From IMG/VR virus record IMGVR_UViG_2698536549_000013: a stretch of DNA of 9,136 nt, one strand, 5' to 3'. This DNA is from a virus (lineage: Duplodnaviria > Heunggongvirae > Uroviricota > Caudoviricetes). The notes beneath the pieces were generated by a model. The model was given only the letters and a program-made list of their open reading frames with translations, did not search any database and was not told where the DNA came from. Each line of letters opens with the position of its first letter. Position 1 is the first letter of the stretch. The translations under genes were made by a program, and so were the position numbers. This document shows positions 3,515-9,136 of this stretch, piece after piece.

Positions 3515-3522
3515 ATGATGAG

Positions 3523-3543
3523 AACCGCTGAGGCGGTTTTTTT
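3523..3543 (+). terminator. Intrinsic-terminator-like hairpin between the G-T and tape measure genes
   Basis: AACCGC (3523-3528) pairs with GCGGTT (3533-3538), loop TGAG, followed by a T-run through 3543. Located 9 nt after the T stop and just upstream of the tape measure RBS. Confidence 0.4.
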
Positions 3544-3561
3544 ACGCCAGGAGAAAGGTGA

Positions 3562-6500
3562 ATGGCGACGTTACGTGAACTGATTATCAAAATTTCGGCA
3601 AATTCACAGTCATTCCAGTCGGAGATCCAGCGGGCGTCCCGTATGGGCAGTGAATATTACCGGACCCTGCAGAATGGCGGACGTCAGGCTGCTGCGGCAG
3701 CCAGGGAGCAGTGCCGGGCTCTGGCTGAGCTGAACAGCCAGTTGACGGAAATCCGCGCTTCGGCTGTCGGAATGACCAGTGCGTTTGCCGGTGCCTTTGC
3801 CACCGGACACCTGATTTCGCTGGCAGATGAATGGAGCTCCGTGAATGCCCGTCTGAAACAGGCGTCGCAGTCATCGGATGAATTTGCGTTATCACAGAAA
3901 GTGCTGATGGACATCAGCCAGCGGACAGGCACCGCATTTTCGGATAATGCGACCCTGTTTGCCCGTTCGGCTGCCTCGATGCGTGAATATGGTTACAGTG
4001 CTGATGATGTGCTGAAGGTGACGGAGGCCATTTCGACAGGGCTGAAAATTTCCGGTGCCAGTGCGGCAGAGGCGGGTTCGGTGATCACCCAGTTCAGCCA
4101 GGCGCTGGCACAGGGGGTGTTGCGCGGCGAGGAATTTAATTCGGTCAATGAAAGTGGGGACCGGATCATTCGCGCACTGGCTGCAGGCATGGGCGTGGCC
4201 CGTAAGGATCTGAAGGCGATGGCGGACGATGGTCAACTGACGGCGGATAAAGTCGTTCCCGCGTTAATCAGCCAGCTGGGGATATTGCGTGATGAATATG
4301 CAGCCATGCCGGAAACGGTGTCTGACGGGATCACGAAGGTGGAAAACGCCTTTATGGCCTGGGTGGGCGGCGCGAATGAGGCCAGCGGAGCGACGAAAAC
4401 GCTCTCCGGCGCACTGAACGGTGTGGCCGGAAATATTGATACCGTGGCAACAGCTGCGGGTGTGCTGGTTGCTGTCGGGGTGGCCCGGTACTTTGGTAAT
4501 CTGGCTTCCGGAGCGATGTCTGCCACGGCAGGACTTGTGACCGCTGCACGTAATGAAGTGGCACTGGCTGAGGCCCAGTTAAGGGGAACGCAGATTGCCA
4601 CGGCGCGGGCAAGGGCAGCCGTGTACCGGGCTCAGCAGGCTGTGGCGGCAGCCCGCGGGACTGAGATGCAGATTGCGGCAGAGGCCCGTCTGGCGGTCAC
4701 ACAGGAACGCCTGAACAGAAATATTGCTGCCAGAACCGCCGCCCAGAATGCGCTGAACAGTACAACGGCGGTGGGCTCACGTCTGATGAGCGGTGCGCTG
4801 GGACTGGTTGGAGGCGTACCCGGACTGGTGATGCTGGGAGCTGCCGCATGGTACACGCTGTACCAGAATCAGGAGCAGGCCAGGGAGTCTGCGCGCCAGT
4901 ATGCACTGACGATTGATGAAATCGCGCATAAAACGCCATCAATGTCTCTGCCTGAAGCCTCAGATAATGAAGGGCGAACACGGGAGGCGCTGACAGAGCA
5001 GAACCGGCTGATTGATGAGCAGGCCAGCCGGGTGAAATCCCTGCAGGAAAAAATCGCCGGGTATCAGTATGTGCTGGCTAATCCGGGCTGGACGACCGGT
5101 AACGGCTTCATGATAAACCATCTGACATCGGTGAAAACTGTAACGGAAGAGCTTGCTCAGGCAACAGAGCAGTTTGCTGTTGAGCAGTCCCGTCTGGCAC
5201 AGATGCAGGAAAAAGCGCAGTCCATTCAGGATGTGCTTGCCGGACTGGAAGAGCGCCGTGTTGTGTTAATTCGTCAGCAGGCAGCAGAGCAGAATAAAGC
5301 GTATCAGTCACTGCTGGTCATGAACGGTCAGCATACGGAATTCAACCGCCTGCTGGGGCTGGGTAATGAACTGCTGCAACAGCGTCAGGGACTGGCGAGT
5401 GTACCGCTGCGACTGCCACAGGCCACTCTGGATGATAAACAGCAGAGCGCCCTGAATAACACAGAGCGTCAACTGGCCCTGTCCCGGCTGAAAGGGGAAG
5501 AAAAAGAGCGTGCCCGGCTGGGGTATGCGGCGGATGACCTTGGTCTGGTGGGGGATACGTATCAGGAGGCGAGGCAGCGTTACATCCGTAATTCGATGGA
5601 AGCCTGGCGCAATAATGAGGCGAATAAACCCAAATCCCGGGCCGGAAAATCAGGGGCGGAAAAAGCGGAAGACAGTTTTTCCCGTCTGCTGAAGCAGCAG
5701 AAGGAACAACTGGCACTGGCCGGGAAGAATACAGAACTGGCAAAACTGAAATACCAGACCTCGCAGGGCGAGCTGAAAACCCTGACGGAGATACAGAAGC
5801 AGGAGCTGCTGCGCAATGCTGCCCTGATTGACCAGAAGAAAATCCGGGAGCAGTTACGGGCCCGGGAGGAGACCCTGAAAAATGATAATGCAGACGCAAG
5901 GGCATCAAATGACGCTGAGCTGCTGGGGTACGGGCAGGGTGAGCGGGTCCGTGAACGGATGCGGGAGCTGCAGCAGATTCGTGACGGCTACCGCCAGAAG
6001 GATGCGGACCTGCAGTCTCAGTATCAGACAGGGGATATCAGTGAGGATTTTTACAGACAGGCGCTGGCGCAGAATGCGCAGTATCTGAGTGAACGCCTTA
6101 AAGACCAGGAGGCTTTTTATGCCGAATCGGATGCGCAGCGTGCTGACTGGCAGAAAGGGCTGCAGGAAGGGCTAAGTAACTGGGTGGACAGCGCATCAGA
6201 TTACGCTTCACAGGCAGCACAGCTTGCGACAGACGGTATCTCAGGGATGGTGAATAACATCACGGAGATGCTGAACGGAAATAAAGTGGAATGGCGCAGC
6301 TGGGCTGCATCAATCCTGCAGGAAATATCAAAAGTTCTTATGAATGCGGCCATTGTCAACGGCATTAAGATGGCGGCAAACAGTATGTCCGGTGCAGGAG
6401 GATTTTTCGGCAGTATAGGCAACTGGCTGGGTGGCGCGGTGGCAAATGCAAAAGGCGGCGTTTATACCTCGGCAAACCTGAGTGCATACAGTAACAGTAT

Positions 6501-6804
6501 TGTGGACACGCCCACGTACTTTGCCTTTGCAAAAGGGGCAGGGCTGATGGGGGAGGCCGGACCTGAAGCCATCATGCCCCTGACCCGGGCAGCGGATGGT
6601 TCACTCGGCGTGCGTGCGGTGGGCAGTATGAACGGCAGTGCGGGTCTGGTGTATTCCCCGGTGTACCACATCGCCATTCAGAATGACGGCGCTAACGGGC
6701 AGATAGGGCCGGAAGCGGCGGGCACCCTTGTGCAACTGATTGACCAGCGGGTACAGGCGGTGATGTTATCCATGCGTCGTGACGGAGGAATGCTGAGTGG
6801 ATGA
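3562..6804 (+). CDS. Tail tape measure protein (lambda H-like role)
   Basis: 1080-aa ORF with RBS AGGAGAAAGG (3549-3558). Position after the frameshifted chaperones is diagnostic. Long Ala/Gln/Glu/Arg-rich predicted coiled-coil centre, two hydrophobic Gly/Ala-rich segments (~4430-4550 and ~4780-4860) and a Gly-rich C-terminus are typical of tape measure proteins. Confidence 0.9.
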   Translation: MATLRELIIKISANSQSFQSEIQRASRMGSEYYRTLQNGGRQAAAAAREQCRALAELNSQLTEIRASAVGMTSAFAGAFATGHLISLADEWSSVNARLKQASQSSDEFALSQKVLMDISQRTGTAFSDNATLFARSAASMREYGYSADDVLKVTEAISTGLKISGASAAEAGSVITQFSQALAQGVLRGEEFNSVNESGDRIIRALAAGMGVARKDLKAMADDGQLTADKVVPALISQLGILRDEYAAMPETVSDGITKVENAFMAWVGGANEASGATKTLSGALNGVAGNIDTVATAAGVLVAVGVARYFGNLASGAMSATAGLVTAARNEVALAEAQLRGTQIATARARAAVYRAQQAVAAARGTEMQIAAEARLAVTQERLNRNIAARTAAQNALNSTTAVGSRLMSGALGLVGGVPGLVMLGAAAWYTLYQNQEQARESARQYALTIDEIAHKTPSMSLPEASDNEGRTREALTEQNRLIDEQASRVKSLQEKIAGYQYVLANPGWTTGNGFMINHLTSVKTVTEELAQATEQFAVEQSRLAQMQEKAQSIQDVLAGLEERRVVLIRQQAAEQNKAYQSLLVMNGQHTEFNRLLGLGNELLQQRQGLASVPLRLPQATLDDKQQSALNNTERQLALSRLKGEEKERARLGYAADDLGLVGDTYQEARQRYIRNSMEAWRNNEANKPKSRAGKSGAEKAEDSFSRLLKQQKEQLALAGKNTELAKLKYQTSQGELKTLTEIQKQELLRNAALIDQKKIREQLRAREETLKNDNADARASNDAELLGYGQGERVRERMRELQQIRDGYRQKDADLQSQYQTGDISEDFYRQALAQNAQYLSERLKDQEAFYAESDAQRADWQKGLQEGLSNWVDSASDYASQAAQLATDGISGMVNNITEMLNGNKVEWRSWAASILQEISKVLMNAAIVNGIKMAANSMSGAGGFFGSIGNWLGGAVANAKGGVYTSANLSAYSNSIVDTPTYFAFAKGAGLMGEAGPEAIMPLTRAADGSLGVRAVGSMNGSAGLVYSPVYHIAIQNDGANGQIGPEAAGTLVQLIDQRVQAVMLSMRRDGGMLSG

Positions 6805-7138
6805 GATTAAGACTCTTCACTGGTGTCCCCGGGAAGGGATGCAGGTGACGGAGAAACCGTCGGTGATGACGGTGAAGTTTGGCGACGGTTATCAGCAGCG
6901 TCGTCCGGCAGGACTGAATGCGCAACTGAAGACCTTTCAGGTGGTTTTTCGGGTGACAACGGATGCTGAGCGGGAGGCACTGTCCGCGTTTCTGTCATGG
7001 CATGGTGGTTACCGGGCTTTTTTGTGGAAGCCCCCGAAACATAACCGGACGGTCAGGGTGGTGTGCCGGGAGTGGAGTATTACGGATAACGCCCGGTACA
7101 GTGATTTCAGTTGCACGATAGAGCAGGTAGTTAGATGA
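6797..7138 (+). CDS. M: Minor tail protein M (lambda gpM family)
   Basis: 113-aa ORF starting at GTG 6797 with GGAGG (6784-6788) upstream, overlapping the tape measure stop (6802-6804). Recalled lambda gpM shares motifs ('...KFGDGYQQR.PAGLNA.LKT...', '...HGG...FLW.PP...') and the position directly after the tape measure gene. Confidence 0.8.
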   Translation: MDEIKTLHWCPREGMQVTEKPSVMTVKFGDGYQQRRPAGLNAQLKTFQVVFRVTTDAEREALSAFLSWHGGYRAFLWKPPKHNRTVRVVCREWSITDNARYSDFSCTIEQVVR

Positions 7139-7218
7139 GAATTATCCTATAAATCATTCTTTAGTGTTTAGTTGTTAATTATTTTTAATCTGTCTTGTCA
7201 GAAAGTGCGAAATCGATC

Positions 7219-7248
7219 TTGCATTTACATTTTGTTACATAATATAAA
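7219..7248 (+). promoter_or_regulatory. Candidate sigma70 promoter and OmpR-box-like element upstream of the porin gene
   Basis: TTGCAT (7219-7224) is a -35-like hexamer, with ATATAA/TATAAA (7242-7248) 17-18 bp downstream. Embedded ATTTACATTTTGTTACATAA (7223-7242) resembles the tandem 10-bp OmpR half-sites of ompC/ompF promoters as recalled. Lies in the AT-rich leader ~90-115 nt upstream of ATG 7337. Confidence 0.35.
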
Positions 7249-7336
7249 TTGAACTAAGAATTTGTATTAAAATATTTTAATTTTTGTTCATGACATCTGA
7301 ATGCATGAATAGTTCAGTTTAAATAAGGATTAAATC

Positions 7337-8491
7337 ATGAAAAAAATGACAGTGGCACTTTCTGCTGTAGCAGTGGCAGTGATGTTTGCTGCGGGGGCGC
7401 AGGCAGCAGAAGTTTATAATAAAGATGGTAATAAACTGGATCTTTACGGGCGTGCAACCGCTCTGCATTACTTCTCGGATGATAAAGGTAATGACGGAGA
7501 CCAGACTTATGCTCGTCTCGGCTTTAAAGGCGAAACGCAGATTAATGATCAACTGACCGGATTTGGTCAGTGGGAATACCAGTTCTCTGGTAATAAAACG
7601 GAATCTGAAGGTTCCGCGGGAAATAAAACCCGTCTGGCATTTGCAGGTCTGAGATTTGCAGATGTTGGTACCATTGATTACGGACGTAACTATGGTATTG
7701 CTTACGATGTCGGATCATATACTGACGTACTGCCTGAGTTTGGTGGTGATGGCTGGACGCAGACCGATAACTTTATGACGGCCCGAACTTCCGGTGTCCT
7801 GACTTACCGTAATACAGACTTCTTCGGACTGGTTGATGGTCTGAATTTTGCGGCGCAGTATCAGGGCAAAAATGAGCGTGATGACCTTCAGAAGGCTAAT
7901 GGCGACGGGTATGGTTTCTCGGCCAGCTATGAGTTTGATGGTTTTGGTTTTGTCGCTGCGTATACCAAGTCAGATCGTACTGATAAGCAGGTTCAGGGGT
8001 TGAATGGTACTGCAGATGTTCTTGATCCTGCATCAGGTAAAAAGGTTGGAGAAAAAGCAGTTGACTCAGGTAGTGTGGCAAAAGGTAAACATGCTGAATT
8101 CTGGGGAACTGGTCTTAAATATGATGCCAATAACCTGTATCTGGCAGCAGTGTATTCTGAAACCCAGAATATGACGACCTTTGGTGATCAAGGTGTTGCG
8201 GATAAAGCTCAGAATATCGAAGCCGTTGTTCAGTATCAGTTTGATTTTGGTCTGCGCCCGTCCCTTGCCTACCTTCAGTCCCGCGGACAGGATGTTATGG
8301 TTGGTGGTGTGAACCATGGCGATCAGGATCTGGTTAAATATATTGATGTCGGTGCGACTTATTACTTTAACAAGAATATGTCCACCTATGTTGATTATAA
8401 AATTAACCTGATTGATGAAAGTGAATTTACCCGGAAAGCCGGTGTTGCGACAGATAATATCGTTGCTGTGGGTATGACTTATCAGTTCTGA
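7337..8491 (+). CDS. General diffusion porin, OmpC/NmpC/OmpD/Lc family (phage-borne moron)
   Basis: 384-aa ORF with RBS AAGGA (7324-7328). Signal peptide [23 protein letters not shown] cleaved before [15 protein letters not shown], the mature N-terminus shared with enterobacterial OmpC/NmpC as recalled. Conserved PEFGGD constriction-loop motif and C-terminal ...VAVGMTYQF ending in Phe. Set in AT-rich DNA unlike the flanking tail genes. Confidence 0.9.
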
Positions 8492-8664
8492 TTATTGCTG
8501 ATAAGTTAATAAATACGGGCCGTCTGCCCTTACAGGCGGCCTGTATCAATGAAAACACAGTTTTCATTGGTCACTGCGATCAGCAATTGCCATCTGGCAT
8601 GTGCTGATTTAACTTTCTGTTATTACCTTTATTGGTTTTATTTTAAATTGGACTTTTATTGTTC

Positions 8665-8688
8665 GGGGCGCGTCTGCGCCCCTTTTTT
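8665..8688 (+). terminator. Rho-independent terminator at the 3' boundary of the porin moron
   Basis: GGGGCGC (8665-8671) pairs with GCGCCCC (8676-8682), loop GTCT, followed by TTTTTT (8683-8688). Lies 13 nt upstream of the L start. Confidence 0.6.
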
Positions 8689-8700
8689 ATGGGCGGATAT

Positions 8701-9136
8701 ATGCAGGATATTCACGAAGAAAGCCTGAACGAGTCGGTTAAGTCAGAGCAGTCACCGCGGGTGGTGCTCTGGGAAATCGACCTNNNNNNNNNNNNNNNNN
8801 NNNNNNNNNNNNNNNNNNNNNNNNNNNNNNNNNCCCGATTGAGGGCAGCGGCTTTGAGATGAACGGAAAGGGCAGCAGTGCCCGCCCGTCGCTGACGGTG
8901 TCCAATCTTTTCGGCCTTGTCACCGGGATGGCGGAGGATTTGCAGAGCCTGGTGGGTGCCACGGTGGTCCGCCGCCGGGTGTATGCGCGTTTTCTTGATG
9001 CGGTGAACTTTGTGGCGGGGAATCCGGAGGCAGACCCGGAGCAGGAGCTGACGGACCGGTGGGTGGTGGAGCAGTTATCAGCGCTGACGGCCATGACGGC
9101 CTCGTTTGTGCTGGCGACACCGACGGAGACGGACGG
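8701..9136 (+). CDS. L: Minor tail protein L (lambda gpL family), partial: interrupted by an assembly gap and running off the window end
   Basis: N-terminus MQDIHEESLNESVKSEQSPRVVLWEIDL closely matches recalled lambda gpL (MQDIRQETLNE...VVLWEIDL). After the N-run, a different frame encodes ...GSGFEMNGKG...RPSLTVSNLFGLVTGMAEDLQSLVG.TVVRR.VYARFLDAVNFV..., again matching gpL. No stop before the window end. Confidence 0.8.
8784..8833. other. Assembly gap (run of 50 N) inside the L gene
   Basis: Exactly 50 consecutive N. The L reading frame differs on the two sides (ATG 8701 versus CCC 8834), and lambda gpL has about 31 residues between the flanking motifs, so the true gap length is not 50 nt. 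Confidence 0.95.

Follow-up and report, generated by a model that had tools for sequence, protein, structure and literature searches.

Phage-borne porins, the IpeX RNA and the morons of lambdoid late operons are already known. Lc of phage PA-2 and NmpC of prophage DLP12 (Escherichia coli K-12) are general porins whose genes lie between Q and the holin gene, on the strand opposite to the late genes. IpeX arises by cleavage of the Lc/NmpC porin transcript, and experiments showed that it represses host ompC and ompF in trans; the 189-nt spacer between nmpC and quuD of DLP12 is the site that encodes it. Lambdoid late-operon morons such as lom and bor of lambda are inserted between genes that are otherwise adjacent, deviate in composition, carry their own terminator and encode an envelope protein, and the gp15 moron of HK97 reportedly lies between T and H. 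Here, a stretch of 9,136 nt (IMG/VR record IMGVR_UViG_2698536549_000013, Caudoviricetes; "the window" hereafter, at its full length) was analyzed, which contains the head-tail joining and tail region of an E. coli lambdoid prophage and, between its tail genes M and L, a cassette with a porin gene. The cassette is apparently a second, undescribed lineage of the Lc/NmpC lysogenic-conversion module. Its slot between M and L, its orientation on the same strand as the late genes, its porin clade, a hypervariable surface loop (L5), an ompC-type OmpR box, its age and its export to plasmids are new here, and no description of a porin or any other moron between M and L was found in full-text searches of the literature.

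The cassette is read here as a lysogenic-conversion "porin-swap" moron, which would consist of a control region, the porin gene, an IpeX-like RNA and a terminator followed by a new spacer for L, in a prophage that resembles Shiga toxin (Stx) phages in layout and is stx-negative; we put the probability of this reading at roughly 0.6. Compared with the late-operon morons named above, both the cargo (a 16-strand porin of the trimeric type together with an RNA whose regulatory role is predicted) and the slot differ. The features of the locus are collected in Table 1.

Table 1. Features of the M/L cassette and of the adjoining tail genes (window coordinates).
Feature	Position	Strand	Basis and remarks
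Tail gene M, minor tail protein, 113 aa	6797-7138	+	Pfam PF05939 Phage_min_tail, E 3.2e-33
Inserted cassette, 1572 nt, 41.9% G+C	7129-8700	+	BLASTN and junction comparison with L011 (empty-site prophage) and L012; composition
AT-rich upstream regulatory region, 198 nt, 23% G+C	7139-7336	+	conserved blocks across alleles
OmpR C1-type box (candidate)	7218-7243	+	ompC upstream sequence, PMC2586830 oligonucleotide, pattern search, alignment
Inverted repeat, 13 nt, left arm AGTTCAGTTTAAA	7311-7323	+	just 5' of the Shine-Dalgarno sequence; the two arms bracket the porin reading frame
Shine-Dalgarno sequence AAGGA of the porin gene	7325-7329	+	7 nt before ATG; read from the sequence; conserved in the alleles
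Porin gene, 384 aa	7337-8491	+	Porin_1, structure matches, AlphaFold2 model
Coding region of hypervariable surface loop L5, aa 214-251	7976-8089	+	allele alignment; loop borders from the model
Predicted IpeX-like structured 3' RNA region	8492-8692	+	hairpins 8513-8546, 8547-8569 and 8578-8609; single-stranded U-rich stretch; terminator
Predicted seed region	8609-8632	+	helix search and shuffle test
Inverted repeat, right arm TTTAAATTGGACT	8642-8654		just 5' of the terminator
Intrinsic terminator GGGGCGC-GTCT-GCGCCCC + T6, 7 G-C pairs	8665-8688	+	stem fully paired in 12/12 aligned variants, 2 compensatory pairs
Cassette-supplied spacer ATGGGCGGATAT, 12 nt, before L	8689-8700	+	ATGGGYGGA in most alleles
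Tail gene L, 5' part; gene runs past the window end	8701-9136	+	Pfam PF05100; 100% identity to L011

The insert, its empty site and its spread

The initial annotation of this DNA, made from the sequence alone, had described about 1.56 kb of AT-rich DNA between the M stop (7138) and the L start (8701). Both positions stand, the distance is 1562 bases, and the porin gene is the sole long open reading frame (ORF) in it. The border of the insert, placed at 7138/7139, had to be moved. When an artificial empty M/L junction was searched against complete E. coli genomes, an empty-site prophage was found in strain JNEC-KY202 (L011), which is 99.4% identical to window positions 3523-7128 and 100% identical to 8701-9136, and in which the M stop and the L start overlap as TGATG. 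Since homology to this near-identical prophage breaks at 7128/7129, the insert comprises 1572 nt, and 9 nt of the M/L overlap (GGTGAACTG) are replaced by it. The final 10 nt of M (7129-7138: the third base of a Val codon, the codons for Val and Arg, and the stop) are insert-derived, and the C-terminus of M is changed from VVN to VVR. The insertion point holds the tail operon's sole single-base overlap of two genes. With its stop codon and its ribosome-binding spacer, the cassette makes good the damage done to M and L; the spacer replaces the translational coupling of L to M. The right junction (terminator, T-run, ATGGGYGGA and L start) is common to nearly all alleles. M and L, which the initial annotation had given as neighbours in lambda, are adjacent in 121 of the 121 matching phage-collection records, with no insert in any of them. 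The empty-site prophage has another insert elsewhere (L011, 2589-3002), annotated as a "putative periplasmic lipoprotein", between T and H, where the window has only a short spacer (about 3515-3561); with T/H, the tail operon has two moron slots.

The insert differs from its surroundings in composition. Its G+C content is 41.9%, as against 57.2% in the tail genes to its left and 61.9% in L, so that the impression of an AT-rich insert in a GC-richer operon was borne out by the composition check. Within it, the upstream spacer of 198 nt has 23.2% G+C, the ORF 45.3% and the DNA behind the ORF 41%, and G+C at third codon positions (GC3) is 0.38 versus 0.61-0.62 in the surrounding genes. The intrinsic terminator that had been claimed is there as well, with seven all-G-C pairs followed by T6, and it is conserved among the alleles. 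Because the cassette is missing from an otherwise near-identical tail module, is foreign in composition and has its own terminator, its status as a horizontally acquired moron is retained; the accompanying idea of a recent or isolated acquisition had to be given up, since about 2% of complete E. coli genomes carry diverged alleles (synonymous divergence, dS, above 1) at this very site.

The cassette was present over at least 80% of its length in 109 of the 5426 complete E. coli genomes (~2%). Its alleles fall into groups of ~100, 95, 91, 86 and 79-80% nucleotide identity, non-coding parts included, and dS among them exceeds 1 and reaches more than 1.5. Representatives of each allele group sit between Phage_min_tail and Phage_tail_L genes, and the same holds for four additional alleles taken from draft genomes and metagenomes, including one of Citrobacter farmeri. 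Among IMG/VR contigs with this porin clade, L lies directly 3' in 30/30 and M directly 5' in 29/30, the other contig being cut off. The variant of M (330 or 342 nt) and the tape-measure family vary among the carriers and the slot is constant; porin and M alleles also reassort, with M 100% identical where the porin is 86% and M 49% identical where the porin is 91%. The location is unlike that of Lc and NmpC, as the initial annotation had suspected: those porin genes are flanked by Q and the lysis genes in DLP12 of K-12, in phage ev017 and in 50 IMG/VR contigs, and none of these 50 NmpC-type loci has M or L nearby.

Same-clade porins (82% identity) were also observed outside prophages, on contigs with Rop and IS66 (L021 and L022, 3740-5330), flanked by decayed fragments of the M 3' end and the L 5' end. 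Because these remnants were retained, the plasmid and island copies derive from the phage arrangement, and the plasmid copies (P0018) were ruled out as the source of the cassette. Two more distant relatives, in L017 (4001-5137, 67% identity) and L020 (3805-4938, 75%), lie in non-phage contexts, one beside a sulfatase gene and a TonB-dependent receptor gene and the other near a CdiI-like gene; hairpin 1 and the terminator of the 3' RNA are kept in the L020 copy and not in the L017 copy. A chromosomal donor was looked for among the GTDB species-representative genomes, none of which has a porin more than 68% identical. To judge from these comparisons, the M/L arrangement appears to be old, with copies exported to plasmids or islands.

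The porin and its surface loop L5

The protein matches Porin_1 (Pfam PF00267, E 5.9e-144) over the full model (1-337/337) and the solved structures of OmpC, OmpF and PhoE with E values down to 1e-131 (OmpC 3upg, 2.7e-131). Residues 1-23 form a signal peptide ending in AQA, and the C-terminal end is TYQF. The eyelet is kept, with the PEFGGD motif of loop L3 and with R39, R60, R99, R150, D130 and E134 aligned with OmpF K16, R42, R82, R132, D113 and E117. In the AlphaFold2 model (predicted local distance difference test, pLDDT, 69.3; predicted template modelling score, pTM, 0.67), 16 long barrel strands were seen, along with a hairpin within L5.

In the neighbour-joining tree, the M/L porins form a clade of their own, sister to NmpC/Lc/OmpD. 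They share 72-73% identity with NmpC/Lc over alignment columns (69% by tblastn), 69-72% with OmpD, and 62-64% with OmpC, OmpF, PhoE and OmpN of K-12. The gene thus encodes an intact general porin of the OmpC/NmpC family, as had been read from the sequence, and the phylogeny that had been proposed as a check places it sister to NmpC/OmpD. It is not an OmpC orthologue, given that it is 64% identical to K-12 OmpC, branches with NmpC/OmpD and is located in a prophage tail operon; nor does it belong to the same clade as Lc/NmpC, considering the 72-73% identity and the separate, well-populated clade. Every annotated record examined labels the gene "porin OmpC". This database name must be generic, because the clade is sister to NmpC/Lc/OmpD and only 62-64% identical to the K-12 porins listed above. 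With chromosomal OmpC, to which the PGAP name refers, the porin shares the fold, the eyelet residues and a 17-nt identity in the upstream C1 box, but it has 64% amino acid identity, no micF neighbour and a prophage location. OmpD of Salmonella and Citrobacter belongs to the sister clade (69-72%) and is likewise a general porin, but it is chromosomal and no tail genes follow it. In comparison with Lc/NmpC, the M/L porin is ~73% identical, its L5 is much longer and hypervariable, an ompC-type C1 box lies upstream, and the cassette supplies the M stop and the L spacer.

The ORF is intact in 12/12 sequence variants and in 30/30 viral contigs. Between alleles, the ratio of nonsynonymous to synonymous divergence (dN/dS) is 0.03-0.05 in the barrel, ~0 in L3 and 0.2-0.6 in L5, which shows strong purifying selection on the pore. 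L5 carries indels of up to ~30 residues across alleles, and the two commonest alleles (A and B) show 71 differences, about 45 of which lie within ~105 nt of L5. A compensated frameshift was ruled out for the A/B difference, the other frames being full of stop codons; the segment is merely highly diverged. Such a pattern is expected of a working pore whose surface loop either is under diversifying pressure or frequently exchanges segments.

The 3' RNA and its likeness to IpeX

A structured RNA behind the porin gene had been overlooked in the initial annotation. The ~200 nt past the porin stop have a minimum free energy z-score of -9 against shuffles. The alignment of 12 variants supports three hairpins and the terminator, with 96% of cells paired, and compensatory changes occur in all four helices. 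Of the 38 pairs, 13 have changed on both sides, compared with 4.7 +/- 1.5 in column shuffles (0/500 reach 13) and 0-7 with slid partners.

A covariance model (R1) was built from the M/L clade only, without any NmpC-type sequence; its E calibration is rough. R1 matches the K-12 nmpC-quuD spacer (L003 3353-3537) with 43.5 bits (E ~5e-8) and gives the same score in phage ev017, and it matches directly behind the porin gene at 30/30 M/L-type and 50/50 NmpC-type IMG/VR viral loci. No R1 match was found near ompC, ompF, phoE or ompN. The cassette is like the Lc (PA-2) and NmpC (DLP12) loci in that a prophage-borne general porin gene, in a predicted transcription unit of its own, is directly followed by an R1-recognised structured RNA, with the same layout of hairpins, U-rich single strand and terminator. 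Pairwise alignment with the K-12 nmpC 3' flank gave a common terminator and the motif AAC(C/T)TTCTGTTAT. In the RNA this single-stranded motif, AAC(C/U)UUCUGUUAU, is complementary to the Shine-Dalgarno region of ompC and is kept in both porin lineages despite their diverged flanks. By these comparisons, the 3' region appears to be a conserved structured RNA related to IpeX. An Rfam scan of window positions 6900-8784 gave nothing credible (best E 0.33), and Rfam (15) has no match for the K-12 IpeX region either, that is, it holds no IpeX model. IpeX is likewise missing from the K-12 nmpC RefSeq feature table; having been described in papers alone, it is overlooked wherever annotation relies on databases.

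Complementarity to host porin messages was analyzed by contiguous helices with shuffle controls; duplex-folding energies were not used as evidence, as the duplexes are long and loop-rich. In the single strand between hairpin 3 and the terminator, the segment UUAACUUUCUGUUAU (8609-8623) can form 15 contiguous pairs (2 G-U) with ompC from -20 to -5, the Shine-Dalgarno sequence included, and UUAUUACCUUUAU (8620-8632) 13 bp with ompF from -17 to -4. The homologous K-12 IpeX segment AACCUUCUGUUAUAU forms 15 bp with ompC from -22 to -7. The helix length was reached in 2/300 dinucleotide shuffles for ompC and in 7/300 for ompF, while the helices with the control targets phoE, ompN and nmpC remained at chance level. 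In diverged alleles the complementarity to the ompF Shine-Dalgarno sequence is kept (11-14 bp). The predicted pairing of the 3' RNA with ompC and ompF is suggestive rather than proof. In its predicted pairing with the ribosome-binding regions of ompF and ompC mRNA, the cassette RNA resembles the antisense sRNAs MicF and MicC, but it has no sequence relationship with them and is the 3' untranslated region (3' UTR) of a porin mRNA, not a divergently transcribed gene.

The inverted repeat that brackets the porin ORF has at least 12 bp in 13 of 17 distinct leader/3' UTR combinations and is absent in two lineages; in one variant both arms have changed and still pair. The repeat may serve pairing between the 5' and 3' parts of the mRNA, let the 3' RNA bind its own mRNA, or be a relic at the DNA level.

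Control region, proposed expression and carrier prophages

Upstream of the porin gene, the 17-mer CTTGCATTTACATTTTG (7218-7234) matches, base for base, the OmpR C1 site in the ompC promoter of E. coli K-12, for which the C1 oligonucleotide was used as quoted in PMC2586830. Its core, TTTACAYYTTG, recurs in 8/11 scanned clade loci at the same distance from the ATG, and a C1-type box was absent upstream of nmpC in the pattern search. The distance from box to ATG is 113 nt in the cassette versus 177 nt in ompC. The leader would be ~17 nt long if the promoter geometry were ompC-like, or ~80 nt if the promoter overlapped the box; by eye, TTGTTC-18-AATAGT (7284-7313) and TTGCAT-18-TATAAA (7219-7248) are candidate promoters. 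With this box, the control region is probably OmpR-responsive.

According to the porin-swap reading, which follows the example of Lc and IpeX, the cassette would be transcribed on its own in the lysogen, the transcript would end at the terminator, and the phage porin would be inserted into the outer membrane. The 3' RNA, processed as IpeX is, would pair with the ribosome-binding regions of ompC and ompF mRNA and repress both, and the major host porins would be replaced by a phage-borne porin with a variable L5. Such a swap could alter phage and colicin docking, immune visibility and the permeability of the envelope. The initial annotation had suggested superinfection exclusion by displacement of the receptor porin, as with Lc/OmpC, and the 3' RNA would offer a concrete mechanism for it. 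In the lytic cycle, RNA polymerase modified by Q would pass the terminator, so that L, K, I and J would still be made.

The orientation of the cassette invites another explanation, in which porin and RNA act in lytic growth from the Q-antiterminated transcript and not in the lysogen, keeping progeny phage off debris or conditioning the envelope before lysis. As the cassette has the same orientation inside the late operon, it would necessarily be transcribed late, and a Q antiterminator gene was found in the same prophage. However, a strong conserved terminator and an upstream OmpR-type box make sense only for an independent transcription unit, and the plasmid and island copies have kept the whole unit without any late promoter. 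The classic relatives Lc and NmpC, too, are expressed from the prophage, and NmpC of prophage Perceval was found 10-fold above background in LF82 cultures (PMC9928086). A function confined to the late phase is thus considered unlikely.

Several observations weigh against the porin-swap reading, some on the side of the RNA and others on that of expression. The significance of the seed is only moderate in an AU-rich RNA, in which chance 10-bp helices are common, and a comparably long helix (13 bp, reached in 5/300 shuffles) forms with the cassette's own leader. In diverged alleles the pairing with ompC is shifted or shortened, with registers around the start codon and 9-12 bp, and a cited review holds that IpeX does not act by complementarity alone. 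The modest seed, the leader helix and the differing registers, along with the fact that stable 3' hairpins are common stabilisers of mRNA, would suit a plain additional porin whose hairpins only stabilise the message and terminate it, with no trans-acting RNA and with a benefit from changed permeability or antigenicity alone. Against such a porin stand the covariance-model match to the IpeX region, for which trans action on ompC and ompF is known from experiment, the retention of the single-stranded motif between the two porin lineages, and the control messages phoE, ompN and nmpC, which show no comparable helices; we judge it to be rather improbable.

On the side of expression, a simple sigma-70 consensus scan of 6900-8784 gave no backing to the candidate promoter of the initial annotation: it found no site on the + strand, and the matches on the minus strand were at chance level. 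A leader with 23% G+C is a typical H-NS target, so that the porin gene could be silent under laboratory conditions. In addition, the confidence of the AlphaFold2 model is only moderate (pLDDT 69), and the comparison of J points to no receptor from which self-exclusion could be judged. The missing + strand consensus promoter and the extremely AT-rich upstream region, together with full-text literature in which no published expression data were found, would fit a silent passenger, that is, selfish or neutral cargo that is repressed (e.g., by H-NS), spreads with tail modules by recombination and brings no benefit. Such a passenger is very unlikely, as it does not agree with an ORF that is intact in all variants and contigs, with a dN/dS of 0.03-0.05 at saturating dS, with a conserved eyelet and four helices in compensatory evolution, or with the conservation of the OmpR box and the Shine-Dalgarno sequence. 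Because of the intact ORF, the low dN/dS, the eyelet, the compensation in the RNA and the conserved box and Shine-Dalgarno sequence, long-term selection on an expressed product is needed.

The porin-swap reading can be extended, more tentatively and with the odds somewhat against it, to a "porin serotype-conversion" system. One transcript would then deliver both a replacement porin, whose L5 diversifies like an antigenic or receptor-variation locus, and an antisense RNA that silences OmpC and OmpF, and lysogens would show a porin chosen by the phage in place of their own; through pairing between the two arms of the inverted repeat, the cassette's own mRNA may be spared or stabilised. The lineage would have persisted in the tail operon to saturating dS while seeding plasmids and islands.

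Porins are the main gate for hydrophilic antibiotics, docking sites of many phages and colicins, and dominant surface antigens. If OmpC and OmpF are indeed swapped, then the host range in phage therapy, colicin sensitivity, beta-lactam permeability and ideas for OmpC-based typing or vaccines would be affected. Many of the listed carrier strains come from human, bovine and food sources and bear Shiga toxin-producing E. coli (STEC) designations, and under the label "porin OmpC" the gene is easily mistaken for a housekeeping gene. The known examples of a porin plus IpeX are doubled, and the covarying helices and common seed provide comparative material on the action of IpeX. Moreover, lambda-like tails are shown to have a usable slot for morons in the overlap of M and L.

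The three carrier prophages inspected (N51, at ompW; RM9387; 2013C-3181) have a Stx-phage-like layout with Q, tRNAs, a nanS-like esterase gene and lysis genes, and an stx gene is absent from all three. The C-terminus of J was uninformative with regard to the receptor, being 90% identical to that of long-tailed Stx2a phages and ~49% to those of lambda (LamB) and h434 (OmpC). Past J, the N51 prophage (L001 28320-37482) carries genes for a Hok/Gef toxin, tail fibres, a protein with a YadA C-terminal domain and an S6-family (SPATE-type) autotransporter peptidase (3993 nt).

In the window itself, the tail genes read comprise those for the major tail protein, the tail chaperones G and T, a tape measure protein of 1080 aa, M and L. 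The readable part of L (8835-9134) matches Phage_tail_L with E 6.9e-41; a run of 50 N lies inside the gene (8784-8833), and the same gene is complete and intact in strain N51 (L001 21905-22603). The major tail protein (2035-2820) has a C-terminal Ig-like domain (Pfam Ig_3, Ig_2 and I-set; E 5e-9 to 9e-8), which is ordinary for lambda-like tail tube proteins.

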